Shown here piece after piece: positions 9,285-60,120 of a DNA stretch of 64,000 nt. Below the pieces are notes generated by a model, which worked only from the letters and a program-made list of their open reading frames with translations, ran no database searches and was not told where the DNA came from. A program made the position numbers and the translations under genes. This DNA is from Planctomycetota bacterium (GTDB lineage Bacteria > Planctomycetota > PLA2 > JAEUHO01). Where the stretch lies: assembly GCA_965223505.1 (NCBI GenBank), contig CBDCWP010000043.1:1-64000 (forward strand). The letters run 5' to 3'. Within the stretch, counting starts at the first letter, position 1, and each line of letters begins with the position of its first letter.

Positions 9285-9920
9285 TTACGCGTTCGGCTGC
9301 TCCGTGACGCGCAGATAGGGCTTGAGCGCGTTCCAACCCGCGGGGAACTTCTCCTTGGCCTCTTCGTCGGTGACGGCGGGAACGATGATGACGCTCTCGC
9401 CGTTCTTCCAGTCGACGGGCGTCGCGACCTGGTGGTTGGCGGTGAGCTGCAGCGAGTCGATCGTTCGCAGGATCTCGTCGAAGTTGCGGCCGGTGCTCGC
9501 GGGGTAGGTGAGCGTGAGCTTGACCTGCTTGTCCGGACCGATGATGAAGACCGAGCGCACGGTGAAGGTGTCGTCGGCGTTGGGATGAATCATGTCGTAG
9601 AGGTCGGAGACCTTGCGGTCCGGGTCGGCGATCAGCGGGAAGTTGAGCGCGTTGCCGGTGACCTCTTCGATGTCCTTGGACCAGCCCTCGTGATCGGAGA
9701 TGCCGTCGACGGAGAGGCCGAGCACCTTGACGTTGCGCTTGTCGAACTCGTTCTTGAGCGCCGCGACGCGTCCGAGCTCGGTGGTGCAGACGGGGGTGAA
9801 GTCCTTGGGGTGGGAGAAGAGAATGCCCCAGCTGTCGCCGAGGTACTCGTGGAAGTTGATGGTGCCGGAAGTGGACTCCGCGGTGAAGTCAGGCGCGGTG
9901 TCGCCAAGTCGAATAGCCAT
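9285..9920 (-). CDS. 1-Cys peroxiredoxin (Prx6 family)
   Basis: LFSHPKDFTPVCTTELG and YPASTGRNFDEILR; ATG 9920 after AAGGAG. Confidence 0.95.
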   Translation of the reverse strand: MAIRLGDTAPDFTAESTSGTINFHEYLGDSWGILFSHPKDFTPVCTTELGRVAALKNEFDKRNVKVLGLSVDGISDHEGWSKDIEEVTGNALNFPLIADPDRKVSDLYDMIHPNADDTFTVRSVFIIGPDKQVKLTLTYPASTGRNFDEILRTIDSLQLTANHQVATPVDWKNGESVIIVPAVTDEEAKEKFPAGWNALKPYLRVTEQPNA

Positions 9921-10938: not shown

Positions 10939-11037
10939 GGGAGAGGATGGCGGACTGGTGTCCCCCTCGGTCTTCAAAACCGCTGTGTCGTTGGGCAACC
11001 TGCGATAGGAGGGTTCGATTCCCTTGCTCTCCCGCCA
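10939..11037 (+). tRNA. selC: tRNA-Sec (anticodon UCA)
   Basis: GGGAGAG/CTCTCCC acceptor stem, CTTCAAA anticodon loop, long variable arm with GCAA loop, GGTTCGATTCC T-arm, GCCA end; 99 nt. Confidence 0.93.
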
Positions 11038-11042
11038 CCTAT

Positions 11043-12293
11043 CTACTGGGCTTTGGGCAGGATGTGATCCACGCGTTTAGTGGGAGGCACGGCGCACCCG
11101 TACAAGCAGTGCCCACCAAAGTGCCCACCAGTGGATCCGGCCACCAGAGCCTCAATGCGTTCCTCCACGCGGTCCGCGTCCAGGTTGAGCTCGAGGATCC
11201 TGTCCAGCGCCTCTACAGCCTTCTTGCCCGCCTCGGGTGCGAAGTGGGCGTAGCGCATCGTCACTTGGATCGTCTCGTGGCCAAGCACCTTGGCAACGTC
11301 GAAGATGGGAACCCCGGCGGCGACCATGAGGGACGCAGCCGTGTGCCGAAGCACGTGCGTGGTGATCTTCGGCTTCTTGTGTGCAGGAATCTCGTCACAT
11401 GCCTGGACTGCGTTCGCGATGTCAAGGCGCAACATCGAGTGCGTGTAAACCGTCCCATCCAAGGCCGCGACGACCTGTCGATCAGGTGATCGGCGACGAT
11501 TCCCTAGAGTGAGGGCATGCCGGGATACTTCGGCGCGTAGCGTGGCGTTCATCCGGATCGTGCGGGGGCGGTGGTTCTTCGGATCCTCGACGAGGAGGGT
11601 CCCTTGTTCTAGGTCGATGGCCCGCCAACAGAGGCCCAGGATTTCCCCTCGCCGCATGCCCGTATTGAGTGCGATCACCAGAAACAGGCGCAGTCGCTCG
11701 GCAGCGGCGGCGACGAGTCCTCGCGCTTCAGCGGCCGTGAGATAGGTCTCGCGACCGCGAGGTGTACGCAGGCGCCGGACGCCCTGAACCGGGTTCTTCT
11801 CCGCAAGGCCGCGCTCGAGAGCCCAGCGGAAGAGGGCACTCGTGACCGCCAGGCCGTTGTTGACGGTCTGAGGTGATACGGAACTCTTCGCTCGTGCATC
11901 CATCCAGCGAACGATGTCGCGGCGTTCGATCTCATCGAGGAGCTTGGCGGTCCACTCCTCGCGCGCGATCATGGCCAAGAGCTTCCGGTACCCGTAGACG
12001 GTGTTGGGCCGGCGGTTGGCCTCGGCGTACTCGAGGTACTGCGGAACCGCGTCGCGGAATGTGATCTGGCCAGGAAGCGGGTCGCCGAAGACTTGATTCA
12101 GGACGACTTCGATCGGGGTGCGCTCGGCAAGGAGGTGTTGCACCCGGACAAGCAATCGCTTGGCAATCTCCTTCGTTGGCCCAGCTGGGCGGTCGTAGCG
12201 TTTGCGCGCCGCGCCCTGGCCGGCTCGAAAGCGGACGTAGTACTTCGAAGACCGAGAACGCCAGTAGATGCTCCCGAAGTCGCGCCTCCCCAT
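11043..12293 (-). CDS. Tyrosine recombinase / phage-type integrase
   Basis: NTGMRRGEI (R), DPKN (K), HVLRH (HxxR), LGH, MRYAH (Y); N-terminal GSIY arm-binding-like segment; RBS AAGGAGG. Confidence 0.95.
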   Translation of the reverse strand: MGRRDFGSIYWRSRSSKYYVRFRAGQGAARKRYDRPAGPTKEIAKRLLVRVQHLLAERTPIEVVLNQVFGDPLPGQITFRDAVPQYLEYAEANRRPNTVYGYRKLLAMIAREEWTAKLLDEIERRDIVRWMDARAKSSVSPQTVNNGLAVTSALFRWALERGLAEKNPVQGVRRLRTPRGRETYLTAAEARGLVAAAAERLRLFLVIALNTGMRRGEILGLCWRAIDLEQGTLLVEDPKNHRPRTIRMNATLRAEVSRHALTLGNRRRSPDRQVVAALDGTVYTHSMLRLDIANAVQACDEIPAHKKPKITTHVLRHTAASLMVAAGVPIFDVAKVLGHETIQVTMRYAHFAPEAGKKAVEALDRILELNLDADRVEERIEALVAGSTGGHFGGHCLYGCAVPPTKRVDHILPKAQ

Positions 12294-16940: not shown

Positions 16941-18029
16941 CTACGGCTGCACCGTGGCGGCCAGGATGTGCCCAGCGAGGGCACCGACACGACTGCGGTT
17001 CTCTGCATGGGCGTAGGCCTTGGCCGCGCTCGTGATCCCGTTGACCACGCCCCACACGCTCAGGTCACCGGGGTTCTCGGGCTCACGCACGAGGTGCACG
17101 ACCTCCCGAGCATCGGCCTGTGACAGCTTGAACTCCCGGTTCAAGCGCTTCACAGCCAGCTCCTCCTCGTTCGGCCCCTCCGGCACGAATCTCGTGTCCT
17201 TGGCCCGCTGGAAGACGTCATACTCGGCCGCGGTGATGGTCGTCCCGATGCGGACGAGGTTCTCGTGGAACTCCCGCACGACCTCCATGACGGTGCCCAT
17301 GTGGCGCACACGCCGGCTCTTGATGCCCGTGGCGTCCCAGATCAGGAAGTTGGCGCACATCTCCCGGAAGTAGAAGGTCGAGAAGCCGAAGCTCTTGGCC
17401 CCCACCTCGCTGTTGAAGACCATCACGCCCTTCCGAAGACCTCCGAAGCCGTCGTCTCCCGGCTCCTGGTCGGAGTAGAAGAAGGCAAACAGGTCCCGGT
17501 CACTACGGAACAGCGCGGGCTTGGTGTTGCCCATCAGGTTGGTACCGTGCTCGTCGGTGTTGATCGTCGGCATCGCAGGGATGAACCCCGATCCAATGAG
17601 CCACCGATCGACCTCCTCGAGGATGTCTGCGTCCCACACACGCTCGTAGCGGTCGCTGGTGACGCAGCGCAGGCGGTCGCCGTCGACCAGGGCCACCTTG
17701 TAGCGGCGGTTCCTCGGGAAGGTCTGATTGAGAACCCTCGCGCGAGTCTCACCGTTCAGGCGCTCCAGCACGGGCATCGGAACCTTGGCCATCGAGGCGA
17801 GCTGCCCGAGGCCGTAGGGCGTGAGCCGAAGGGTGGCCTCGCCAAAGTGGACGGATCTCCCGTCCTCCGAGAACAGGATCTTGTCGTCTCGGGCGTCCAC
17901 CGTCGCACAACGCTGGCGCTGATCCGACGCGTCAGAGAGCAGAGCCGGGAAGCTCTCGAAGTGCTCCTCGGGGGGCCTCGTGAACAGATTGTCCCTTGCT
18001 TGAGTGAGCAGGACCACGGCAGTCTCCAT
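16941..18029 (-). CDS. DUF932-like mobile-element protein
   Basis: LFTRPPEEHF, TSDRYERVWD, LFRSDRDLF.F, GVMVFNSEVG.KS, C.N..IW, WGVVNGIT. Confidence 0.65.
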   Translation of the reverse strand: METAVVLLTQARDNLFTRPPEEHFESFPALLSDASDQRQRCATVDARDDKILFSEDGRSVHFGEATLRLTPYGLGQLASMAKVPMPVLERLNGETRARVLNQTFPRNRRYKVALVDGDRLRCVTSDRYERVWDADILEEVDRWLIGSGFIPAMPTINTDEHGTNLMGNTKPALFRSDRDLFAFFYSDQEPGDDGFGGLRKGVMVFNSEVGAKSFGFSTFYFREMCANFLIWDATGIKSRRVRHMGTVMEVVREFHENLVRIGTTITAAEYDVFQRAKDTRFVPEGPNEEELAVKRLNREFKLSQADAREVVHLVREPENPGDLSVWGVVNGITSAAKAYAHAENRSRVGALAGHILAATVQP

Positions 18030-18088
18030 CTGGGCCTCTGGCCCGGTTCTTGATTCACTGGATGACGACGAAGTGCAGGAGACGATCC

Positions 18089-18517
18089 ATGGGCACGCCA
18101 GCACGCACCCCACCGGGGCTCGACCGCAGCCAGATCGAAGCGGCCCTGCGTCTCTTCGAGAGCATGGAGCAATGGAAGCGAACCGACCGCGCCCTTGCCC
18201 TGCTGGCAGATCGCTTCCCGACTCACGACCCTGAGTCAGTGCTGCTGAAGGCCTCGGTCCTGAACAGCCTCTACAGCACAGGCGTCCTCGCCATCGTTCG
18301 CATGGCGGAGCACATGGCCTCGGTGCTAGAGGGCATCGACACCGCAACCGTTGGGCCCGAGGTCATCGAGGATCTAGCGGTGCTTCCCGCCCTGGATGCA
18401 GGCGCGAAGCCCCGCCACAACGTCAGCCTGGCCTCGAAGTACGCCCACATCTTCATCAGCGAGGAGCGTTTCAGCGAACGTCCTCCCGGACATCTTGCGG
18501 GGTTGGTTCGGTCCTGA
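18089..18517 (+). pseudogene. Hypothetical protein fragment
   Basis: VLLKASVLNSLYST...SLASKYAHIF looks like a conserved domain cut off at about 18470. Confidence 0.4.
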
Positions 18518-19064
18518 TGCCGGTCTGCCAGGTACGAACTACCACGTGAGGTTCGTGGTTTCCGGAGACGCCTGGGTGCTTGAGCCTGAGCAGAAGGATG
18601 ACGGGCCAGGAGTTGAGTTCGAAGTAGATCGCGCATATCCCCGGACTCAGGTCGCTGAGCTCTTGGGCCGGCCGTACCGTGCGCCCCTCTGGGAACGCGG
18701 TCTTGTTACAGATGTGCCTGACCAACTGCTCCTATTCGTCAATCTTGACAAGGCTGGGATGCCTGAAGAGCACCAGTACGAGGACGGCTTTCGCGATCGC
18801 GAGACCTTTGCCTGGCAGAGCCCTGGTGGTCTTGCTCAGGAGTACAAGCAAGGCCGCAGGCTTCGCAATCACGAGTCTCTGGGCCTGCCGGTTCGTCTCT
18901 TTGTGCGTAAGGCCGCTAAGCTGGGCGGCAAGACCGCGCCCTTTGTCTACTGCGGCCGACTCACGTTCCTTGATTGGCACGGCGAGAAGCCGATCAGCGT
19001 CAGCTGGAGGCTCGACCCGCCGCTGTCTGATCGGCTGGTTCGCACCTTCGACCTGCAGTTTTAG
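18474..19064 (+). pseudogene. DUF3427-like C-terminal fragment
   Basis: ILRGWFGPDAG.PGT, LLFVNLDK, Y.D.F....F.WQS, LFVRK, PFVYCG; no convincing start of its own. Confidence 0.6.
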
Positions 19065-19301
19065 TGCGGGTGCGTGGCGCCAGGGCGCTCGTGTGCCTCA
19101 TCTGATCAACGCTCGGGGCCCGCAGAGGGGCACACTCAGAGCCTCAGCATCTCGCGATCGGCCTAAGCGGCGCAGGCATAGACGCTTTCGGCGGCAGCCG
19201 TCTAACCCTCATCGGTCTTCATCTCCCGTGCGCGGATGGCTCGTCGGTCTCGCGCCAAGTGACCCCGCGCCATACCCTCTGGGCTCGACGAGGAGGTATG
19301 G

Positions 19302-21707
19302 ATGGACGCGAACCTGGGACGCCAGAGCATTGTCGCGTGGGCCGCCGGAGCGCCGGAGGCCGACAAGGGCGCCGCGTTCACCCCCGCCGAACAGAAGTTC
19401 CGGCTGGAGATGCTGATCGGCCGGGGTGGCATGGGGGAGGTCCACATCGTCACGGACGAGGACCTCAAGCGGCAGGTGGCCATGAAGGTCATGCGCGAAG
19501 ACGTCGAGGCGAGCCGCCAGCAGCGCCTGGCCTTCGTGGCGGAGGCGCAGGCCACCAGCCAGCTCGAGCACCCCGGCATTCCGCCCATCCACGACATCGG
19601 CCTCACGAAGGAGGGCCGGCTCTACTTCACGATGAAGCTCGTCCAGGGCCGCACGCTGGCCGAGGTCATCCACGACCTGGCGCTCAAGCGCCGCGAGGTG
19701 CAGAGGGAATACAACCTGCACAAGCTCGTCGGCATCCTCGAGCAGATCTGCGAGACGATGCAGTTCGCGCACGAGCGCGGCGTCATCCACCGCGACCTCA
19801 AGCCCGAGAACATCATGCTCGGCGATTATGGCGAGGTGCACGTCATGGACTGGGGCCTCGCGCGCGTAGAGCACGAGACCGACCCCGACATCGAGGACGC
19901 CGAGTACGTCGAGACGGCCAAGGTGAGCCGCGGCACCGAGACCCAGCACGGAGACGTCAAGGGCACGCCGGCCTACATGAGCCCCGAGCAGATGCGCGGG
20001 CAGACCGAGCTGCTCGATGCGCGAAGCGACGTGTATGCGCTGGGCTGCGTGCTCTACGAGATGCTCACGCTGCATCCGGCCTTCGACGGGACCCTCTCGG
20101 AGCTGATCTCCAAGAAGGCCTCGGGTGAGGTCGTCGATGTCGGGGAGCGCAACCCGCGCCGCAAGCCGCCCGAGCCGTTGGCCGAGGTCTGCCGAAGGGC
20201 CATGGCGACGGCGCCGGAAGATCGCTACGCGACGACACGAGACATGGGCGACGCGCTGCGCGTCTGGCTCGACGGGCGCGGTGAGCGCGCGCGACGGCAC
20301 CAGGAAGCCGATGAATTGGCCGCGAAGGGCCGCGAGGCGTTCGCGCGCTTCGATGCGTTGAACGAGGAAGTGCGGGCAGCCGAGACGGCAGCGGACCAGC
20401 AAGCCGCCAAGGTGAGGCCCTGGCAGTCCGTGACCGAGAAGGATGCTCTGCTCGATGCGCGCGCGCGCGTCAAGACACTCCAGACCGACGCGGCACTGGC
20501 CTTCGCCGAGACGACGCAGCTGCTCAACGCCGCGCTGACCCAGGAGGCGGACAACAAGGCGGCTCGCGCTGCCCTCGCGCAGCTGTGGAGGTCGCGTCTC
20601 GAAGACGCCGAGCGGCGCTCGGACGCAGCCGACGCCGCACATGCCTTGGCGAACCTCGAGCGCTACGACGACGGGGCGCTCGCCGCGTTCGTCCAGGGGG
20701 ACGGCGCGCTTTCGATTGTGAGCGATCCGCCCGGCGCCGAGGTCGTGCTGACGCGCTTGGAGGACCGGCGTGGAATCCTCGTACCGGCCGAGGAACGATC
20801 GCTGGGGACCACGCCGCTTCAGGCGGTGCCGCTCGCGATGGGGTCCTACCTCTGCGTCCTGAGGCGGGAGGGCTTCGCGGACACCCGCTACCCCATCCAC
20901 ATCGCGCGCGGGCACCACTGGGACGGCCGGGTACGCCTGCGCATGCAGGACCAGATCGGTGACGGGTTCGTCTACGTGCCGGGCGGTCCGATGATCTACG
21001 GCGAAGGGAAGGCGACGAAGACGATCGAGGTCGAGGACTTCGCCATCCAGCGCCTGCCCGTCACGTTCGGCGACTACCTCGAGTTCGTGGCCGCCGTCGA
21101 GGCCGAGGAGGGCCTGGAGGCGGCGACGGCGCGCGCACCGCAGACGCCGGGCGACGGGCTCTACGTGGAGCGGGGCGAGGACGGCGTCTGGCGGCCGTTG
21201 TCCGTCATCGTGGAGGGCGACATCCGCGCCTGGTGTCTCGAGACCTACGGCGAGGGCTTCGAGACGGACATCCCGGTGATGGGCGTCTCGTTCGAGGACG
21301 CCGAGGCCTTCTGCGCGTGGAAGACGAAGACCACCGGTCGCGAGTGGCGCCTGCCGACGGAGGAAGAGCGAGAGAAGGCAGCGCGCGGCGTCGACGGGCG
21401 GCGCTTTCCCTGGGGCGACCTGAAGGACGCGAGCCTCGCCAAGTGCCGGGAGTCGCGGGAGCTCAGCACGCAACCCGAGCCGGTCGCCGCCTTCGAGACC
21501 GCGGTCTCGGTCTACGACATGGCCGACGCGGCCGGCGGCATGTGGGATTGGACCACGTCCTGGTTCGACGACAGGAAGGCCCTGCGCGTGCTGCGCGGCG
21601 GGTCCTGGGTCAATCCTCCAGCGGGCCTGCGCTGCGCGGACCGCCGCGGCGACCTACCGTCGAACCGCGGCTCCACCTACGGGTTTCGTTGCGCGAGGGG
21701 CCTCTGA
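19302..21707 (+). CDS. DGR target 1: Ser/Thr kinase - helical linker - PEGA - FGE-sulfatase (C-lectin fold)
   Basis: IGRGGMGEV, HRDLKPEN, DWG, GTPAYMSPE; SDPPGAEV; WRLPTEEEREKAARG, FPWG, RVLRGGSW, GFRC; VR1 at the 3' end. Confidence 0.95.
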   Translation: MDANLGRQSIVAWAAGAPEADKGAAFTPAEQKFRLEMLIGRGGMGEVHIVTDEDLKRQVAMKVMREDVEASRQQRLAFVAEAQATSQLEHPGIPPIHDIGLTKEGRLYFTMKLVQGRTLAEVIHDLALKRREVQREYNLHKLVGILEQICETMQFAHERGVIHRDLKPENIMLGDYGEVHVMDWGLARVEHETDPDIEDAEYVETAKVSRGTETQHGDVKGTPAYMSPEQMRGQTELLDARSDVYALGCVLYEMLTLHPAFDGTLSELISKKASGEVVDVGERNPRRKPPEPLAEVCRRAMATAPEDRYATTRDMGDALRVWLDGRGERARRHQEADELAAKGREAFARFDALNEEVRAAETAADQQAAKVRPWQSVTEKDALLDARARVKTLQTDAALAFAETTQLLNAALTQEADNKAARAALAQLWRSRLEDAERRSDAADAAHALANLERYDDGALAAFVQGDGALSIVSDPPGAEVVLTRLEDRRGILVPAEERSLGTTPLQAVPLAMGSYLCVLRREGFADTRYPIHIARGHHWDGRVRLRMQDQIGDGFVYVPGGPMIYGEGKATKTIEVEDFAIQRLPVTFGDYLEFVAAVEAEEGLEAATARAPQTPGDGLYVERGEDGVWRPLSVIVEGDIRAWCLETYGEGFETDIPVMGVSFEDAEAFCAWKTKTTGREWRLPTEEEREKAARGVDGRRFPWGDLKDASLAKCRESRELSTQPEPVAAFETAVSVYDMADAAGGMWDWTTSWFDDRKALRVLRGGSWVNPPAGLRCADRRGDLPSNRGSTYGFRCARGL
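21578..21697 (+). repeat. DGR variable repeat VR1
   Basis: 120-bp ungapped match to TR with 15 differences, all at TR adenines. Confidence 0.97.
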
Positions 21708-21788
21708 CTCTGGCCCTCTCGCTCTGTCGGGGGGCCCGCCTACGCTCACCTCGCCTTCGGGTCGGGGAGGGCGCCCATGAAACGGCTC

Positions 21789-21908
21789 GGCCCTGCGCGT
21801 GCTGCGCGGCGGGTCCTGGAACAATCCACCAGCGAACCTGCGCTGCGCGAACCGCAACGGCAACCAACCGTCGAACCGCAACACCAACAACGGGTTTCGT
21901 TGCGCGAG
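21789..21908 (+). ncRNA. DGR template repeat (TR)
   Basis: Intergenic copy of both VRs containing ten AAY codons in the target reading frame. Confidence 0.97.
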
Positions 21909-22059
21909 TGACCTCGAGAGACAAGGCCTGAAACGGGCCGTCCACGGACGGCCCGTCCGCGCCACGAAAGAGGCCCCAAGCGCCCGACTCCGGGTCGTCC
22001 GACAAGATCTCGGAGGACCGAAGAGAACAGCGCCGGGGTGGGGCTCGTAGCGCCTGGGT

Positions 22060-22452
22060 TCAGACCCGGCGCGAGCGTCCCGCCCCGGCACCCTCCGCGC
22101 GCGTGCGCCTCTCCTCGGATCGACGCCACCCTCCGATCAGGCGACCGATCTCGGCGACTCGCTCGCAGGCGAACGCGTGCTGGCGATTCGAGAGGTAGCC
22201 GAGGTCTGTCGCGAGCCGCAGCATGAAGCGCGTGGCGTCGAGGTTCCCGTCGGCGTCGTCCAGGGCTTCGAGCCGCCGCGCGCCGCGCCGGCGATTCGCC
22301 AACGTGAGCGCGGTCTGCAGCTCCAGCACGGCCGACTCCAATCGGTTCGTCAGCGTGTGCCGTCGGGCCCGCGGGAACCTCTCGGTGTGCGGTAGAAGCC
22401 AGCGGATGAAGTCGTAGGTGCGGACGAAGACCGGGGTCTCTTCTGCGCGCAT
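22060..22452 (-). CDS. avd: DGR accessory variability determinant (four-helix bundle)
   Basis: YDFIRWL...FPR..RHTL..RLE, LR.A.DLGYLS, EIGRLIGGW; basic 130-aa protein; RBS GGAGGAGG; adjacent to RT. Confidence 0.9.
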   Translation of the reverse strand: MRAEETPVFVRTYDFIRWLLPHTERFPRARRHTLTNRLESAVLELQTALTLANRRRGARRLEALDDADGNLDATRFMLRLATDLGYLSNRQHAFACERVAEIGRLIGGWRRSEERRTRAEGAGAGRSRRV

Positions 22453-23513
22453 CGGTGGCGTACCTCCTCCAGGACGTGGCGGCGTAGGCCGCGTGCGTGG
22501 GCATGGGCGGTGTGGGCGAGCCAGGAGCAGAGCGAGTCGCGCGCCTTCTCGGCAGGCAGCGCTCCACGGAGGAACGCGCGGGTGTTCGCACGCAGGCGCT
22601 TGCGGTAGCGCTTGACCGACGCGCCCTGCACCCGGCGTCGGCCGTCGGCGAAGAGCGCGAAGCCCAGGAACGGCACGCCGGCCGTACACGGACGTACGCT
22701 CGTCTTCTTCGCGTGCAGGCTCAGCCGGAGACTGGCGAGGCGCAGCTCGATCGCCGCGAGCCACGCCCACAGCGTGCGCTTGTCGTCGGCGAACAGGCGG
22801 AAGTCGTCGGCGTAGCGCACGTACGCCTTGACGCGCAACTCCTCCTTCACGAAGTGATCGAGCGGATCCAAGACGACGTTGGCGAAGAACTGGCTCGTCA
22901 GGTTGCCGATCGGGATGCCGCGTGGCCGAAGGAGCGCGAGCAGGTCGTCGCCGGGGAATAGCACCTGCGGTGCCTCGCCCTTGAGCACGTGTGCACCACC
23001 GGCCAGGACGTGTCCCACGAGGGCCAGCGTTCGTCCGCATCTCACCTTCCGTTCGACCGCGGCTGTCAGCACCTCGTGATCGACCGAGGCGAAGAAGCGC
23101 AAGACGTCGGCGCCGAGCGCGTAGCGGAATCGCTTGGTGAACCCGTGCGCCCGGTCGATCGCCGCGTGCCCTCCCTTGCCCTTCCTGCACGCGTAGGAGT
23201 CGTGGACGAAGCGTGGCTCGAAGACGGGCTCCAGCACCCCGACCAGCGCGTGGTGGACGACGCGGTCGCGGAAGGGCGCGGCGGAGACGAGCCGCCGCTT
23301 GGGCTCGTGGACGAGGAACGAGCGGTAGGGACCGGGCCGATAGCTGCCGTCTTGCAGCTCGCGCCGCAGCGCCTCCAGCTCGGCCTCGAGGTGGTAGTCG
23401 AAGGCCGTCGTCGCCGGGCGCGAGCGACCGGCCCCGTGCGCGCGCCGGTACGAGGCGAGCAAGTGGGCCCGGGACGTCAGCCGATGCCAGAGGTTTCCGC
23501 ACCGTCTCGGCAT
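22350..23513 (-). CDS. DGR reverse transcriptase
   Basis: EPKRR.VSAAPFRDRVVHHAL, SYACRKGKG, GIPIGNLTSQFFAN, YVRYADDF, FLGF; no maturase or endonuclease domain. Confidence 0.96.
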   Translation of the reverse strand: MPRRCGNLWHRLTSRAHLLASYRRAHGAGRSRPATTAFDYHLEAELEALRRELQDGSYRPGPYRSFLVHEPKRRLVSAAPFRDRVVHHALVGVLEPVFEPRFVHDSYACRKGKGGHAAIDRAHGFTKRFRYALGADVLRFFASVDHEVLTAAVERKVRCGRTLALVGHVLAGGAHVLKGEAPQVLFPGDDLLALLRPRGIPIGNLTSQFFANVVLDPLDHFVKEELRVKAYVRYADDFRLFADDKRTLWAWLAAIELRLASLRLSLHAKKTSVRPCTAGVPFLGFALFADGRRRVQGASVKRYRKRLRANTRAFLRGALPAEKARDSLCSWLAHTAHAHARGLRRHVLEEVRHRCAQKRPRSSSAPTTSSAGFYRTPRGSRGPDGTR

Positions 23514-23593
23514 GGCGGAGATCTGACTACGAGAGACGGACGGCGAGGTCAGCCCGGTAGGATCGCGCCCCGGGAGTCGATCGGGAGGGTCGC

Positions 23594-26002
23594 ATGGCCG
23601 ATGCAGCACGGTTCGGGCGCAAGAGCGTCCTGCTCCAGAGCCCTTCGGGATCTGCGCAAGGCGCGGCCTTCGAGCCAGCCCATGAGAAGTACGCGATCGA
23701 GACCCTGATCGGCGAGGGCGGCATGGGTGAGGTCCTTCTGGTCGAGGACCGGGACCTGCAGCGGCAGGTCGCCATGAAGGTGTTGCGCAAGGAGGTCGAG
23801 CAGAAGGACGCGCTGCGCCTGCACTTCCTGGCCGAGGCCCAGGCCACCAGCCAGCTCGAGCACCCCGGCGTGCCGCCCGTGCACGATCTGGGCATCACGC
23901 CCGCGGGGCAGCTCTACTTCACGATGAAGCTCGTGCGCGGCCGCACGCTTGCCGAGGTGCTGCACGACCTCGTGCTCAGGCGCCGGGACGTGCAGCGGGA
24001 GTACTCGCTCCATCGCCTCGTCACAATCGTCACGCGGATCGCCGAGACGCTGCACTACGCGCACGAGCGCGGGGTGCTGCACCGCGACGTGAAGCCCGAC
24101 AACATCATGCTGGGCGACTACGGCGAGGTGCACTTGATGGACTGGGGCCTGGCGCGCATCGCCGAAGAGGACCTCGAGGGTCAGCCACTGGACGCCGAGC
24201 GTGTGGCGACGGCTCGTAGCGGCGACGCGCTCAAGACACAACACGGCGACGTCAAGGGCACGCTGCCCTACATGAGCCCCGAGCAGCTCAGAGGTCAGTC
24301 CGATGCCCTCGATGGCCGCACGGACATCTACTCGCTCGGATGCGTGCTCTACGAGATGCTCACGCTCCAGCCCGCGTTCGATCCGCGAGCCGGGGATCTG
24401 CTTCAGCGCGTGTCGGCGGCCGACGTACCGGACGTCGCGAAGCGAAGTCCCAAGCGCAAGGTCCCGCCTGCGCTGGCCGACGCGACGCGCCGGGCGATGG
24501 CTCGCGAGGCCGCGGACCGTTTCGACACGGCTGAGGACTTCGCCGATGCGCTGCAGGCCTGGCTGGATGGCTCGAGCGAGCGCACCCGACGTCACGAGGA
24601 AGCCGAGGCGCTGGCCGCGAAGGGCCGCGAGTCCGTAGCACGCTTCGAGACCCTGCGCGCGGAGATCGACGCGGCCGAGAAGGCAGCTGAGACCGAGGCG
24701 GCGAAGTTCGAGCCCTGGCAGCCGCTCGACGAGCATACGAGCGTGTTCGAGGCGCGCCAGAAGGTCGAGGAGCTCGAGACCGCGCGCGCCCTGGCGTTCG
24801 CCGATGCCACGCACACGCTCAATGCAGCGCTCGTCCAGGAGGAAGACAACGCCTCGGCGCGCACGGCGCTCTGCGACCTGTGGAAGACGCGGCTCGATGG
24901 TGCCGAGCGGCGCGCGGACAAGGCCGACGTGGCGCATGCGCTCGCGATGATCGAGCGCTACGACGACGGTCAGCTCGCGGCGTACGTGAAGGGCGACGCC
25001 GCGCTGACGCTACAGACCGACCCGCCGGGCGCCGAGGTCGTGATCCAGCGCTTCGAGGACGAGCGCGGGATCCTCGTCCTCGGCGAGGAGCACTCGCTCG
25101 GGACCACGCCGCTCGACGGCGCCCCGCTCGAGATGGGCTCCTATCTCTGCGTTGTCAGGAAAGAGGGCTTCGCCGATACGCGCTACCCCGTCCACATCGC
25201 GCGCGGCCACCAGTGGGAAGGCCTGGTCCGCCTGCGCACGCCGGAGGAGATCGGAGACGAGTTCGTCTACGTGCCCGGCGGACCGTTCGTCTGCGGCGAG
25301 GGCAAGGAGACGAAGACGGCCGAGGTGGGGGACTTCGCGATCCAACGTCTTCCGGTCACGTATGGGGACTACGCAGAGTTCCTGGCTGCCGTCGATACCG
25401 AAGAAGGCGTCGAGGCAGCGGCCGAGCACCTGCCGCGCACACCGGGCGACGGGCCCCACATGTTGCGCTCGGATGACGGCACCTACGTGGTCGATCCGAA
25501 GATCGTGGAGGGCGAGGCGCTGGCGGCGAACATCGAGCGTCACGGCGAGCGGTACGAGTCACGGCTCCCGGTGCTCGGCGTCTCATGGGACGACGCGGTC
25601 GCCTACTGCGCGTGGAAGACGAAGACGACCGGCATGGCCTGGCGCCTGCCGACCGAGGAGGAGCGCGAGAAGGCCGCGCGTGGTGTGGACGGGCGGCGTT
25701 TCCCGTGGGGCGATGTTGAGCACGCGAGCCTCGCGAAGTGCCGCGAGTCGCGACCGGAAAGCACGCAGCCGGAACCGGTCGGCGCCTTCGCGACGGCGGT
25801 TTCGGTCTACGGCATGGCCGACGCGGCCGGGGGCGCGTGGGACTGGACCGACTCGTGGCTCGACGACAGGAAGGCCCTGCGCGTGCTGCGCGGCGGGTCC
25901 TGGAACGGTCCGCCAGCGAACCTGCGCTGCGCGTTCCGCATCGGCAACCTACCGTCGGTCCGCAACGCCTTCTACGGGTTTCGTTGCGCGAGGGGCCTCT
26001 GA
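23594..26002 (+). CDS. DGR target 2: paralogous Ser/Thr kinase - PEGA - FGE-sulfatase protein
   Basis: Collinear paralog of target 1 (802 vs 801 aa); HRDVKPDN, DWG, TDPPGAEV, RVLRGGSW, GFRCARGL. Confidence 0.95.
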   Translation: MADAARFGRKSVLLQSPSGSAQGAAFEPAHEKYAIETLIGEGGMGEVLLVEDRDLQRQVAMKVLRKEVEQKDALRLHFLAEAQATSQLEHPGVPPVHDLGITPAGQLYFTMKLVRGRTLAEVLHDLVLRRRDVQREYSLHRLVTIVTRIAETLHYAHERGVLHRDVKPDNIMLGDYGEVHLMDWGLARIAEEDLEGQPLDAERVATARSGDALKTQHGDVKGTLPYMSPEQLRGQSDALDGRTDIYSLGCVLYEMLTLQPAFDPRAGDLLQRVSAADVPDVAKRSPKRKVPPALADATRRAMAREAADRFDTAEDFADALQAWLDGSSERTRRHEEAEALAAKGRESVARFETLRAEIDAAEKAAETEAAKFEPWQPLDEHTSVFEARQKVEELETARALAFADATHTLNAALVQEEDNASARTALCDLWKTRLDGAERRADKADVAHALAMIERYDDGQLAAYVKGDAALTLQTDPPGAEVVIQRFEDERGILVLGEEHSLGTTPLDGAPLEMGSYLCVVRKEGFADTRYPVHIARGHQWEGLVRLRTPEEIGDEFVYVPGGPFVCGEGKETKTAEVGDFAIQRLPVTYGDYAEFLAAVDTEEGVEAAAEHLPRTPGDGPHMLRSDDGTYVVDPKIVEGEALAANIERHGERYESRLPVLGVSWDDAVAYCAWKTKTTGMAWRLPTEEEREKAARGVDGRRFPWGDVEHASLAKCRESRPESTQPEPVGAFATAVSVYGMADAAGGAWDWTDSWLDDRKALRVLRGGSWNGPPANLRCAFRIGNLPSVRNAFYGFRCARGL
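25873..25992 (+). repeat. DGR variable repeat VR2
   Basis: 120-bp ungapped match to TR with 13 differences, all at TR adenines. Confidence 0.97.
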
Positions 26003-26058
26003 CTCTGGTCCTCTACGAGCGGGAGCCGGCGTGCGCTTCTTGGGATGCGCGCTCGCCC

Positions 26059-26104
26059 TGGGCAACCTTGGATAGGAGGGTTCGATTCCCTTGCTCTCCC
26101 GCCA
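26059..26104 (+). repeat. att-like copy of the tRNA-Sec 3' end
   Basis: 44/46 identical to 10992-11037; last 34 bp perfect. Confidence 0.92.
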
Positions 26105-26233
26105 GTTCTTTTCTGCCGAATTCCGGCAGCCACTTCATCAATCGCGAGCGGGGGTTGGAGGCAAGTGCCCAATTGAAAGCAGCAGGCGCCGTGCTTGGCG
26201 CCTGCCGCAAGTCGCTCGGCTGCAGCAGCTCAG

Positions 26234-27610
26234 CTAGCCGCCGCACCAGCGCGCTGCGAACCAGTCGTAGACCCCGCCGTCGTCACGGAAGCCGGAGAGG
26301 AGGATGTCTCCGTTCCCGTCGATAGAGACGCTCCAGAGCGAGATGTGGTCCGCGCCCGATGCTCCGAGCGCCTCTCCCTCTCCGCCAAGCCCAAAGCCAG
26401 CGTCGAGGGAGCCATCTGCGTTCAGTCGCACGGGGCGCAGATCGTTGTCGGTGGTCGTGAGGCCGACGTCGGCGGCAACGACGACCTTGCCGTCGGCCTG
26501 ATGGGTCACCGCCGAGCCCTCGGACGGGCTTTCGACGCCGAGCGCCGCGATGCCGCTCGTGCCGAACGCCGTGTCGAGACTGCCGCCCGCCAAATGTCGC
26601 CCGGCGATTGCCTCTGCGTCCCCGTTGGAGTCGAGTCTCCAGCCGCAAGCGACGATGCGATCGCTGCTGTCGATCGAGATGCCGCGAAGATACAGGCCCG
26701 CTTCCACGACCTGACCGAAGGTCGTGTCCACGCTGCCGTCGGTGTCGTAACGGGTGAGGGCCCACTGATCCCCGTTGATCCGTCCACCCACGACGATCTT
26801 GCCCGAGCTCTGGATACCGATCGCGCCCAGGAACGGCCGGTCGTCTCCAGTGCTCGCGTCATTCACGGCGATGCCGTCCTCGTCGAAGGTCGTATCCAGG
26901 TCCCCGGTCGCGTCGTAGCGAAGAACACAGATGGCCGTGCTCGTGCTGCTCGAGCCGCCGCCACCTTTCTTGCCCTTGCCTCCACCGCCGCCCGAAGACG
27001 CGGCCACGCCGTCGGCGCGCCCGGCAACCACGATCTGGCCGTTGGACTGGACGGCAGCCGACTCGCCCTGCGCGCTGCCATCTTGGGCCTCCGAAACCTC
27101 GGTGTGGACGATCCCGCCGTCGCCGAAACTCGTGTCAAGGGCGCCAGCACTCGTCAGCCGCACGACGGTCAGACGATTGACGTAGCTCGTGCTCTGCTTC
27201 TTACCTCGGCCAGTCGTGATAGCAACACGAACCCGGCCGGTGGCGAGGATGCGGTCGCTGGCGTCGACGATCATGTCGCGGAGGTTGTCCGAGCCGTTGT
27301 CCCCGAACAGCAGTGTCTCGCCGCTCGATCCGAACGAGGCGTCGAGCGATCCATCGCTGTTGAGGCGAGTGAAGCGCCACTCACCGCTGTCACTGCCGGC
27401 CATGACGACCTTGCCGCTGCTCTGCACAGCGATTGGCAGGGGGGTGGCGCCCGAGGAGGCGAGGTACTCGACACCCCCTGTTCCGAAGCCGGTGTCCGGG
27501 TTGCCTGCCACGCCACTCGCCGCCGCCACGGGAAGGCCTCCCAAGGCTGCGCACATGAGGACGAGTGCCCCCAGTCGGCCCAGGGCTCGTGAGTTCCGAT
27601 CGCGTTCCAT
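26234..27610 (-). CDS. Exported delta-60 repeat (beta-propeller) protein
   Basis: Repeated Q..GK.VVAG / RL..DGSLD.SFG..G motifs; signal peptide; GGAGG RBS. Confidence 0.85.
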   Translation of the reverse strand: MERDRNSRALGRLGALVLMCAALGGLPVAAASGVAGNPDTGFGTGGVEYLASSGATPLPIAVQSSGKVVMAGSDSGEWRFTRLNSDGSLDASFGSSGETLLFGDNGSDNLRDMIVDASDRILATGRVRVAITTGRGKKQSTSYVNRLTVVRLTSAGALDTSFGDGGIVHTEVSEAQDGSAQGESAAVQSNGQIVVAGRADGVAASSGGGGGKGKKGGGGSSSTSTAICVLRYDATGDLDTTFDEDGIAVNDASTGDDRPFLGAIGIQSSGKIVVGGRINGDQWALTRYDTDGSVDTTFGQVVEAGLYLRGISIDSSDRIVACGWRLDSNGDAEAIAGRHLAGGSLDTAFGTSGIAALGVESPSEGSAVTHQADGKVVVAADVGLTTTDNDLRPVRLNADGSLDAGFGLGGEGEALGASGADHISLWSVSIDGNGDILLSGFRDDGGVYDWFAARWCGG

Positions 27611-33475: not shown

Positions 33476-33541
33476 CTTCAGAACCGCTGTGTCCCTGGGC
33501 AACCTGCGATAGGAGGGTTCGATTCCCTTGCTCTCCCGACA
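33476..33541 (+). repeat. att-like copy of tRNA-Sec from the anticodon loop to the 3' end
   Basis: 62/66 identical to 10972-11037. Confidence 0.92.
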
Positions 33542-33768
33542 CTACTTCTTGGGATCTGGGGGTGAGGTGGCCCGGCGAGTCAGCGGTCCCGCCACTGGGA
33601 CGAGGTACTCGCGAAGTGGGCACTCTGGTGGGCACACTACGGCCGATGACCAAGCGAGCTGTGCGGCCGCGCGTGGTTGTGCTCCCGGCGCCATTGCTTC
33701 GGCCCTGAGCCGGTCCGGTGGCACGTCCGGAGGGCGTTTCGTATGCTCCCCGACCATTGGAGAGCACG

Positions 33769-58262: not shown

Positions 58263-60120
58263 GCTCGAGGTGCTGTCCTCGAGCGAGGTCGAGCGAGCGG
58301 TCCGGGATCTTCCGGTATCCGTCGGGCGTCGGAACGACGAGACGGTAGCGACCCGGGCCCGGCGCGCGGACGTGCAGCTGCTGTGACCCGCGGTCGAACC
58401 ACAGGTCCGTTTGGTCCTCGCCGTCTTCGTCGTAGAGCTGCGGGTAGCGGATCTTGTCGATCGGAACGACCGTCTCCCCCTCCCGGAAACGAAGCGTCAC
58501 GGACTCGGTGTGTTCGAGCAGGAGCGTCAGCTCGTTCGATCCGCTGGATGCGGTCAGCTCCCGCTCCGCTTCCCGGAACAACGGGCCGGCGGCCTCCACC
58601 CGCAGCTTGCCGACGGGTACGTGCGCGATCCACACGGCCTGCTCGGGATCCCACGCGAACGACCCGCGCGAGCGCATCTTCGCGCCCCGTGTGAAGTCGA
58701 CCTCGATGCCGGTCGTGATCGCGTCGTCGCGTGCGTCCACGACCTTCACGCGCAGCTCGCAGATCTCGGGCACCGCGACGACGGCATCCTCGAGCCCGTC
58801 GTTGCCGACCTCGAACGTCGCCGAGACGGCGACGGGCATGACGGTCACGGTCCAGGTGCCGGTCGTGATCTCGCCCGCACTCCAACGCAGAAAGCCGGGC
58901 TGCTTGGGGTCGGCCTTCAGCTGCTTCGCTTCGATGATGATCATGCGCCGGGGCGCGGCGGGGTCCTCGGTCGTCACCCAGAGGAACAAGGGCGTTGGAC
59001 CGCGTCTTGCATGCGTTCGCAGCACACCGGATAGCGGGACCGTGCGGACGTCGGGCGAAGGTGCGAGCTCCAGCGTGATCGATGAGCGCTCCCCGGAACG
59101 AACCTCGATGCGTGCCTCCGCCAGCTCGGGCGTCGCTACACGATTGCCGCGATAGCGACCGCCGAGAGCGCGAATCCAGTAGGGTCCGGGCGGCAACCCC
59201 TCGATGATCACCGGCTCGTGACCGGCGAGGCGAAACTCCAGATGATCCCATTCCGCCCTGTCCCGAGCGGCTGACCGGTCGCGCGCGACCAGCCACGCGT
59301 TCTTGCCCGGCAGCGCACCGCTGAAGTGAACCTCCAGATCGCCACCGCGCCGAAGCGCGACGCGATGCTCGCCCCCGACGCGGTGATCCACGGCAACGTG
59401 GCCCCAGGCGTAGCCCGCGGCGCGCACGTACCACGTCGGCGTGCCGTCGCGGTCGGGAAGCGTGACGGGCGAGTCGAGGTCCTCGGCGACGAGACGCTCC
59501 TGCCACCCTTCGCTCGGGTGCAAACGGGTGTCGTCGAAGCGGTCGGCTTGAACGAGCGTCAGGCCCGTCATGGGGCGCCCGGTCTCCTCGTCTTCCACGT
59601 GCAACACCGACGGCAGCGGCCACCACGCTTCGACGAGGACGTCTTCGCCCGGCGTGACCGGGATCTCCTCCCACGTCGCGCACGCCATGCGACCGCCGAT
59701 CTTCAGGTCGGCCACGTCGATCCCCAGCGGCTGCGACGCCTCGACGCTGAAGCGCCCCTTCTCGACGCGCACGAAGGACTCGAACCGGCCGGCGCGCGTG
59801 CGCACGTCGATCGTGAACGTGCCCGACTCCTGCGTGTGCGCCTCGCCCTCCGCGTCCCTCACGACCAACATGCCGCGGAGGATCCCGCCGTTCGACTCGG
59901 CGTCGGTCCGGGTCGGATCGACGTCGCGTGCCGGCGTCGGCGCCGCCCCGGTCGAGGGCGCACCTTCCAACATCGGCGCGTTCGGATTCTCGTCCGAGGT
60001 CGTCGTCCCATTGCCGCCGCCCTCCGGCGCGACGTCGCCGGCGGAAAACGCGACGAACGCCGCCACGCCCAGGCAGGCGAGCAGCAGAGCGGCGAGCAAC
60101 AGGCGTGCGGGCGCGGGCAT
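58234..60120 (-). CDS. Exported beta-sandwich protein (carboxypeptidase-regulatory-like repeats)
   Basis: N-terminal hydrophobic anchor; GLPPG.Y and PG.Y.L.V motifs. Confidence 0.55.
   Translation of the reverse strand: MPAPARLLLAALLLACLGVAAFVAFSAGDVAPEGGGNGTTTSDENPNAPMLEGAPSTGAAPTPARDVDPTRTDAESNGGILRGMLVVRDAEGEAHTQESGTFTIDVRTRAGRFESFVRVEKGRFSVEASQPLGIDVADLKIGGRMACATWEEIPVTPGEDVLVEAWWPLPSVLHVEDEETGRPMTGLTLVQADRFDDTRLHPSEGWQERLVAEDLDSPVTLPDRDGTPTWYVRAAGYAWGHVAVDHRVGGEHRVALRRGGDLEVHFSGALPGKNAWLVARDRSAARDRAEWDHLEFRLAGHEPVIIEGLPPGPYWIRALGGRYRGNRVATPELAEARIEVRSGERSSITLELAPSPDVRTVPLSGVLRTHARRGPTPLFLWVTTEDPAAPRRMIIIEAKQLKADPKQPGFLRWSAGEITTGTWTVTVMPVAVSATFEVGNDGLEDAVVAVPEICELRVKVVDARDDAITTGIEVDFTRGAKMRSRGSFAWDPEQAVWIAHVPVGKLRVEAAGPLFREAERELTASSGSNELTLLLEHTESVTLRFREGETVVPIDKIRYPQLYDEDGEDQTDLWFDRGSQQLHVRAPGPGRYRLVVPTPDGYRKIPDRSLDLARGQHLELTIQLKRRD

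Follow-up and report, generated by a model that had tools for sequence, protein, structure and literature searches.

The first 64,000 nucleotides (nt) of contig CBDCWP010000043.1 from a Planctomycetota bacterium (assembly GCA_965223505.1; this whole stretch is called the window below) contain two paralogous kinase genes between positions 19,302 and 26,002. The 3' ends of both genes recur in a third, adenine-rich copy between them, and a reverse transcriptase (RT) gene and an avd gene are located in the same interval. A preliminary description of this sequence had proposed a complete diversity-generating retroelement (DGR) with two targets, in which a template repeat (TR) is copied into the variable repeats (VR1 and VR2) at the ends of the target genes. 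RT and avd are encoded on the minus strand, and TR, VR1, VR2 and both target genes lie on the plus strand; the gene order is target 1 with VR1, TR and a spacer-like element in forward direction, then avd and RT in reverse direction, and finally target 2 with VR2 again in forward direction. With a probability of roughly 90%, the locus is an intact DGR of the cellular, Avd-dependent kind with an uncommon inverted layout, which is carried as cargo by an integrase island at a tRNA-Sec gene.

Repeat finding revealed three ungapped copies of 127 nt (21578-21704, 21789-21915 and 25873-25999), of which the middle one is the adenine-rich copy. The statistics were calculated for the core of the TR (21789-21908; 120 nt with 26 adenine and 94 non-adenine sites). 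As the preliminary description had stated, this core aligns without gaps to both VRs, and every difference lies at a TR adenine (VR1: 15 of 15, hypergeometric p 1.6e-12; VR2: 13 of 13, p 1.2e-10). The substitutions comprise eight A>G, five A>T and two A>C in VR1, and eight A>T and five A>G in VR2; 21 of the 26 adenine sites are altered in at least one VR and seven in both. All codon changes named earlier (AAC to GTC, GGC, GAC, CGC, ACC and TAC in VR1; AAT to GGT and AAC to TTC, ATC, GTC and TAC in VR2) were found in the alignments. The estimate of the possible diversity was also right: in the frame of the targets the TR holds ten AAY codons, one CAA and one ACC codon, which gives 15^10 x 5 x 4 = 1.15e13 variants, and stop codons cannot arise from changes at these codons.

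Non-adenine mismatches are completely absent from the 120-nt core, as had been claimed for it, and one occurs immediately beyond it. Past position 21908 both VRs share T>G at 21909, which is the sole non-adenine mismatch between TR and VRs, and A>G at 21911 (TR AGTGACCTC; VRs AGGGGCCTC). The VR ends read GCGCGAGGGGCCTC... and the TR end reads GCGCGAGTGACCTC..., and the same T/G and A/G difference is kept in two related loci with inverted layout (L179 and L180, see below). These differences look like the distinction between the initiation of mutagenic homing sequence (IMH) of a VR and its counterpart in the TR (IMH*), a pair described in PMC5758913 (this and the other papers marked "excerpt" are cited for portions of their text). 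VR1 and VR2 stay alike for about 20 nt beyond their stop codons, where the TR diverges. The IMH-like boundary of VR1 is identical to its counterpart at VR2 (25986-26014) save one C/T exchange and departs from the TR from 21909 on. A stem GGGGCC/GGCCC across the stop codon is possible at both VRs; a GC-rich inverted repeat downstream of the IMH was reported for 34% of the DGRs (PMC5758913, excerpt).

TR, VR1 and VR2 have the same base at each of the 94 non-adenine sites, and VR1 equals VR2 at only 7 of the 26 adenine sites. The identity of the two target genes themselves is only 71% before the VR begins (1627/2285) and 81% over their final 300 nt (243/300). Each VR was thus rewritten separately from the TR after the genes had diverged. 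The recent activity proposed in the preliminary description is borne out in this evolutionary sense only, as a rewriting of VR1 and VR2 from this TR that is younger than the divergence of the target genes.

RT and Avd were correctly placed between the two targets in the preliminary description, which left their position on the minus strand unremarked. The RT possesses the motifs GIPIGNLTSQ and YADD. Among solved structures it matched best to 8ub7 chain A (1.5e-47 over residues 2-343; 165.7 bits), which we take to be the RT of the Bordetella phage (bRT), the database title being only 'Reverse transcriptase'. The next matches were a group II intron RT (GsI-IIC; 8e-27, 97.5 bits) and retron-type RTs (8e-15 or weaker; at most 58 bits), so that a closer affinity to group II intron or retron RTs, named earlier as the finding that would speak against a DGR, is not seen. 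In the alignment with 8ub7 the residues corresponding to R74 and I181 of bRT are kept; the role of both residues and the signature of DGR RTs, [I/V/L]GxxxSQ and not QGxxxSP, are described in PMC7826257 (excerpt). RT and Avd are the only matches to RVT_1 and Avd in the assembly (5.15 Mb, 92.5% complete), and RT, avd and both target genes are free of frameshifts and internal stop codons. Only about 7 nt separate the stop codon of avd from the spacer-like element, whose 3' end it faces, and the two units therefore converge. The positions of all features are compiled in Table 1.

Table 1. Positions of the DGR components and of the island boundaries in the window.
Feature	Position	Strand	Remarks
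tRNA-Sec gene	10939..11037	+	Left end of the island; detected with ARAGORN
Tyrosine recombinase (phage-integrase family)	11043..12293	-	Beside the tRNA gene; Pfam Phage_integrase 6.2e-25
Target gene 1	19302..21707	+	801 aa; Pfam Pkinase 4.9e-39, FGE-sulfatase 2.9e-37; ATG preceded by GAGGAGG
VR1	21578..21704	+	Last 42 codons of target 1; 15/15 core differences at TR adenines
IMH-like 3' boundary of VR1 (GCGCGAGGGGCCTCTGACTCTGGCCCTCT)	21691..21719	+	Putative function after the BPP-1 model (PMC5758913, excerpt)
TR upstream flank	21750..21788	+	Predicted pairing with sequence downstream of the TR, like the cPRT-stop duplex
TR	21789..21915	+	Adenine-mutagenised core 21789-21908; IMH*-like end 21909-21915
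Structured spacer-like RNA element	21921..22053	+	133 nt; directly 3' of the TR and on its strand; conserved in 5 inverted loci
avd	22060..22452	-	130 aa; NCBIfam DivGenRetAVD 88.4 bits (cut-off 80), Pfam bAvd 73.4 (cut-off 40)
DGR reverse transcriptase	22350..23513	-	387 aa; RVT_1 3.4e-15; IGNLTSQ and YADD; overlaps the avd start by about 100 nt
Divergent intergenic region	23514..23593		80 bp between RT start and target 2 start; putative promoters
Target gene 2	23594..26002	+	802 aa; paralogue of target 1 with 64% amino acid identity (BLASTP 514/803)
VR2	25873..25999	+	Last 42 codons of target 2; 13/13 core differences at TR adenines
Direct repeat of the tRNA-Sec 3' part	26059..26104	+	46 nt, 96%; candidate right end of the island, 57 nt after the target 2 stop codon
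Second direct repeat of the tRNA-Sec 3' part	33476..33542	+	67 nt, 94%; end of a second, tandem segment

For the evaluation of the layout, 160 relatives (80 loci on genome contigs and 80 metagenome loci, some of them duplicates) were fetched and scanned for adenine-biased repeat pairs. Such a TR-VR pair was present in 60 of the 80 genome contig loci and in 34 of the 80 metagenome loci, and in all 94 cases the TR was located on the strand of the RT, unlike in the window. The inverted layout is common to seven loci in five planctomycete genomes. Beside the window itself (G000, RT identity 100%), these are three loci of the genome G026 (contig C133, locus L011, 75%; C1, L179, 62%; C726, L180, 60%) and one locus each of G032 (C265, L181, 60%), G167 (C3, L223, 58%) and G072 (C3, L224, 60%). 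In a quick tree calculated for 46 RTs, a single branch (Shimodaira-Hasegawa-like approximate likelihood ratio test 99) separates these seven RTs from the rest, which suggests a single inversion event in this lineage. In the inverted relatives the mismatches between TR and VR lie at adenines in 22 of 23 (L179), 18 of 19 (L180), 14 of 14 (L223) and 10 of 12 cases (L224). More distant planctomycete relatives showed the gene orders avd-RT-TR, TR-(avd)-RT and RT-avd-TR. The nearest relatives of the RT include loci from Thiohalocapsa PB-PSB1, Nostocaceae and Leptolyngbyales, and kinase-FGE, caspase-FGE, NACHT-FGE and TIR-NACHT-FGE proteins occur as targets among the relatives; a clade as defined by Roux et al. 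can tentatively be assigned from the neighbours in the quick tree. Inverted DGRs correspond to the rare Group 4 of Schillinger et al. 2012 (PMC3521204, excerpt) and are also rare according to MyDGR, and Wu et al. (PMC5758913, excerpt) mention that TR and RT may be located on different strands.

Some of the inverted relatives showed further peculiarities. In L011 (2319-3322), which stems from a metagenome-assembled genome of the Planctomycetia and contains the closest relative of the RT, an insert of about 950 nt occupies the exact point where the 3' ends of avd and of the spacer RNA adjoin. Judged by eye, the insert contains genes for a Phd/YefM-like antitoxin and a PIN-like toxin. The direct repeat of 48 nt (92%) at its borders is a duplication of the avd end. 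Another insert of 120 nt separates the TR from the spacer element in the same locus. The target gene of L180 (G026:C726) is preceded, at a distance of about 240 nt, by a tRNA-Phe gene (9373-9448), which hints that these cassettes often sit near tRNA genes.

A structured element of 133 nt follows directly 3' of the TR on the plus strand. In five inverted loci this element is better conserved than parts of the TR. Folded in the sense of the TR it forms 36 pairs, with many G-U pairings, and the covariation term amounts to -3.24; in the antisense fold the covariation term is -0.28, and several pairs are turned into C-A mismatches. A covariance model (R1) was searched against 95 sources (891,565 bases) and returned the five training sequences and 15 further weak matches (E 0.0025-0.79). 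Twelve of these 15 begin 1-22 nt after a located TR and on its strand (two pairs among the twelve are duplicate records), and the other three lie at the expected place after the RT on short contigs in which no TR-VR pair was found. R1 matched in two further inverted loci with E-values of 7e-9 and 2e-8, again directly 3' of the TR. In the alignment of 20 rows 89% of the cells are paired, versus 67% in shuffled rows and 37-45% with slid partners, and 27 of the 36 pairs are changed on both sides, although these counts derive from a model-fitted alignment in which several rows come from the same or related genomes. No Rfam family matched the region 19000-26500 at E<=1.

The first stem-loop of the element (about 21933-21958) starts about 18 nt after the TR and is a candidate for an Avd-binding stem-loop; of its 16 pairs, 11 show changes in both partners. 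RNAalifold applied to four loci paired columns 56-85 with columns 328-389 (three pairs changed on both sides), which tentatively points to a duplex joining the upstream and downstream flanks of the TR. Both structures would correspond to features reported by Handa et al. (10.1101/2023.10.23.563531, excerpt), who described an Avd-binding stem-loop just downstream of the TR and a flank-joining duplex in 207 of 278 DGRs. We conclude that, most probably, TR and spacer were relocated together and transcription of the plus strand yields the template RNA, which would start either at a promoter of its own or as an extension of the target 1 transcript. A terminator on the plus strand was not found between target 1 and TR, nor was a match to the sigma-70 consensus in the region 23514..23593.

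These components suggest the following course of diversification. The minus strand would yield RT and Avd, and an RNA of the plus strand would carry the upstream flank, the TR and the 133-nt spacer-like element. By analogy with the Bordetella phage, a complex of RT and Avd would bind this RNA and copy the TR to cDNA with misincorporation opposite adenines. The cDNA would then take the place of the homologous 120 nt with which either target gene ends, and the IMH-like sequence would form the limit on the 3' side. In consequence, 12 residues on the tip of a C-type-lectin fold would be recoded, and about 1e13 variants of each kinase could alter what these proteins sense or bind.

The same genome also contains a decayed sister DGR locus on contig C10 (C10:51842-59352; L010 3843-11352). 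It comprises an intact kinase-FGE gene with a VR-like end (C10:54236-54361), another kinase-FGE gene that carries a single frameshift near L010 10404 and has a VR-like end (59093-59214), and a 48-nt remnant of a TR (59305-59352), from which the VR-like ends differ at four positions each, all of them adenines. RT, avd and a spacer-like RNA were not detected at this locus, and L010 was included in the search with the covariance model; a CitMHS transporter gene occupies the place between the two kinase-FGE genes where RT and avd would be. Diversification of the C10 copies in trans by the TR of the window was considered and rejected, because their VR-like ends show 7 and 9 non-adenine differences to this TR and no spacer-like RNA was found there. 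Decay is also apparent in G032 (C265; L181 5807-5930 and 9855-9983). Here the target that diverges from the RT, i.e. the counterpart of target 2, differs from the TR at 18 adenine and 11 non-adenine sites, and this VR is apparently being lost from the system. Before any counterpart of target 1 is reached, the contig ends.

It might be assumed that the locus in the window is likewise a genuine DGR that no longer works and whose VRs are frozen, for example due to a recent loss in which the TR RNA was no longer expressed after the inversion. The decayed sister locus and the decaying VR of G032 show that cassettes die in this lineage, and several further points weigh against an intact and active element. 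The protein clusters contained no near-identical variants of target 1, target 2 or RT that would show strain-level differences in the VRs. No RNA run containing the stretch was found in the search of sequencing runs, which yielded four runs from one study (shares of sampled words 0.94, 0.75, 0.71 and 0.67). No promoter-like site was detected for the TR RNA or for avd-RT, although the consensus used, that of sigma-70, may be unsuited to this phylum. The hairpins beside the IMH-like sequences fold no better than shuffled sequences (z -0.79 and +0.57), and to this comes the limited independence of the rows behind the covariation counts given above. Finally, VR1 and VR2 share the same A>T at 21866 (CAA>CTA, Gln>Leu) and at 21889 (last AAC>TAC, Asn>Tyr), which could be due to selection for Leu and Tyr, to shared history or to chance. 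One VR of the C10 locus likewise has TAC at the site matching 21889.

Nevertheless, a recent inactivation is improbable. Neither VR has accumulated a single difference at the 94 non-adenine sites of the core, and RT, avd, TR, spacer and targets are all intact. Moreover, the inverted layout is kept in seven loci of five genomes, and L179, L180, L223 and L224 contain adenine-specific pairs, so that the inversion as such is compatible with function.

It is very unlikely that only target 1 is a true target in cis and that target 2 gained its VR by duplication, or the reverse. Targets beyond the core of a cassette can indeed decay, as the 11 non-adenine mismatches of the divergent target in G032 demonstrate, but in the window VR2 differs from VR1 at 19 of the 26 adenine sites and at none of the 94 non-adenine sites, and the flanking gene sequence is only 81% identical. 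Hardly any weight can be given to ordinary paralogy or gene-conversion tracts with a fortuitous adenine bias beside an unrelated retroelement: the targets are indeed paralogous, and contig C10 has a third related pair, but the all-adenine distributions have the chance probabilities given above, the RT is of the DGR type and accompanied by Avd, and the TR lies outside any gene, since its frame runs on without the stop codon of the targets. Practically negligible, too, is the idea that a group II intron, retron or defence (Drt/UG) RT merely adjoins the repeats; the top-named NCBIfam match is a group II intron RT/maturase, and PADLOC lists generic RT and UG models, but all scores of non-DGR models stay far under their cut-offs (group II 144 bits versus 300, retron 34.5 versus 235, Drt at most 38 versus 200-550), the motif is IGxxxSQ and not QGxxxSP, avd comes after the RT and both a maturase/X domain and msr/msd are missing, and 94 of the 160 fetched relatives possess adenine-biased TR-VR pairs.

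A separate aspect of the intact DGR is the meaning of its layout. It is conceivable, albeit doubtful, that the layout is a regulatory variant of a DGR and not a neutral rearrangement, in which the module was flipped as a unit and hypermutation became coupled to the expression of the sensor kinases. The template module would then lie in the 3' untranslated region of its own target and face the 3' end of avd-RT at a distance of about 7-40 nt. The template RNA would stem from read-through of the target gene, the converging transcripts could restrain each other, and the whole arrangement would travel on the tRNA-Sec island.

Both targets consist of an N-terminal Ser/Thr kinase, a long helical or coiled middle part with a weak PEGA match, and a C-terminal FGE-sulfatase/C-type-lectin domain, to which the Pfam model FGE-sulfatase was aligned over positions 4-255 of 255. 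By eye, GxGxxG, VAMK, HRDLKPEN, DWG and SPE were recognized in both proteins, which we take to be the named motifs of kinases. Hydrophobic segments were not found in the targets (the maximum hydropathy of target 1 according to Kyte-Doolittle over 19 residues is 1.08). Judged from these features, both are cytoplasmic Ser/Thr kinase-FGE/C-type-lectin proteins and belong to a known class of DGR targets, which was described for cyanobacteria (PMC7517822, excerpt) and noted in the survey of Wu et al. (PMC5758913, excerpt).

An AlphaFold2 model of residues 545-801 of target 1, based on an alignment of 29 sequences, reached a predicted local distance difference test (pLDDT) score of 95.1; an earlier model based on six sequences (pLDDT 48) was discarded. 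Foldseek matched the model to FGE, SUMF2, CalU17, PvdO and ToxD (E 1e-16 to 5e-21). The variable residues of target 1 are the 12 residues 770, 771, 775, 780, 782, 784, 785, 788 and 790-793. In an alignment of 121 family members the mean entropy was 3.38 bits at the 12 residues encoded by TR codons with adenine, in comparison to 1.16 at the other VR residues and 1.25 in the rest of the lectin domain, and these 12 account for 9 of the 20 positions that vary most in the entire protein.

The family of the targets has about 800 amino acids and a uniform architecture. Of the 8000 candidates scored, 2271 proteins match at E<=1e-50, and all of these with source names are labelled Planctomycetota. The nearest full-length homologue of target 1 is 78% identical. 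The sole co-member of the target 1 cluster, P0002, is a protein of 87 amino acids with about 90% identity to residues 121-200 of target 1 and is encoded on a 2.16-Mb contig of another assembly. This protein is probably a fragment of a broken target 1 orthologue in a close relative. The PADLOC result was rejected as an indication of a role in defence: the kinase domains of both targets match the PD-T4-6 and mad6 models, as do the two other kinases of the window that were tested.

The assembly contains three full or partial copies of tRNA-Sec, all of them on this contig and in the same orientation; the repeats lie 15.1 and 22.5 kb downstream of the intact gene. The intact tRNA gene, the adjacent integrase and the repeat of the tRNA 3' end indicate that the DGR lies within a segment of 15 kb that is bounded like an integrated island. 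Due to their different lengths (46 versus 67 nt), the repeats likely result from two tandem insertions, or from one old and one new insertion. tRNA-Sec was found in 23 of 29 genomes of the family, G000 among them, and is present as a single copy in 19 of these 23. Three relatives (G011, G019 and G023) possess a full and a partial second copy 24-56 kb apart, and integrase homologues are located beside tRNA-Sec in 8 of the 28 loci examined. The flanking genes of the window were not found beside the tRNA-Sec of relatives within flanks of 1.5 kb, and close relatives yielded no empty site.

Beside the DGR, the first island (15 kb) contains a kinase-STAND-TPR (kinase-AAA_16-TPR) gene and fragments with matches to DUF932 and DUF3427. 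The latter occur between the STAND kinase gene and the DGR (16941-19064) as overlapping open reading frames with a low GC content at third codon positions, which match DUF932 (0.0024) and the C-terminal half of DUF3427; the partial DUF3427 match also fits a model of type IV restriction enzymes. These reading frames are probably gene fragments left in the island. The second island (7.4 kb) encodes a DUF5122 beta-propeller protein, an extracytoplasmic function (ECF) sigma factor and a kinase-TPR protein.

Kinase-lectin targets, DGRs with several targets and inverted DGRs are all already in print, and the known working mechanism of DGRs is unchanged by this locus. It adds an intact and fully delimited DGR that would diversify cytoplasmic sensor kinases, in a phylum that is rich in kinase-lectin proteins. 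In every one of the seven inverted loci in five genomes, TR and spacer RNA module are located together on one strand. This supports the published view that co-transcription of TR and RT is unnecessary and that the RNA 3' of the TR is part of the machine. The intact locus, its decayed twin without RT and the island together provide a compact picture of the gain, use and decay of such a cassette.

In comparison to the DGR of the phage BPP-1 (mtd-avd-TR-brt), whose mechanism is described in PMC5758913, PMC7826257 and 10.1101/2023.10.23.563531 (excerpts), the locus possesses the same essential features: an RT with IGxxxSQ, YADD and the equivalents of R74 and I181, an Avd, TR/VR differences exclusively at adenines, a difference like that of IMH and IMH*, a structured RNA directly 3' of the TR, and a target whose C-terminal C-type-lectin fold carries the VR. 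Unlike the BPP-1 element it is cellular and not phage-borne, the RT precedes avd, and TR and spacer lie on the opposite strand. The TR is flanked upstream by the 3' untranslated region of a target gene where BPP-1 has the end of avd, the two targets are predicted cytoplasmic kinases with an FGE-type lectin domain and not a tail fibre protein, and no convincing GC-rich hairpin follows the IMH-like sequence.

With islands integrated at the 3' ends of tRNA genes, the segment shares an intact tRNA gene (here tRNA-Sec) that has a tyrosine recombinase beside it and whose 3' part recurs downstream in direct repeats. It differs from other islands of this type in its two repeats of unequal length. The closest counterparts regarding the layout are the inverted DGRs of Group 4 from Shewanella baltica OS155, Vibrio sp. 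RC586 and Photobacterium angustum S14 (PMC3521204, excerpt), in which the other DGR features are normal, too, and the RTs also cluster. In contrast to these, the DGR described here occurs in another phylum, its avd follows the RT on the strand of the RT, and the spacer-like RNA went along with the TR. As none of the 160 fetched relatives belongs to Shewanella, Vibrio or Photobacterium, it is likely that the inversion in the planctomycete lineage originated independently.

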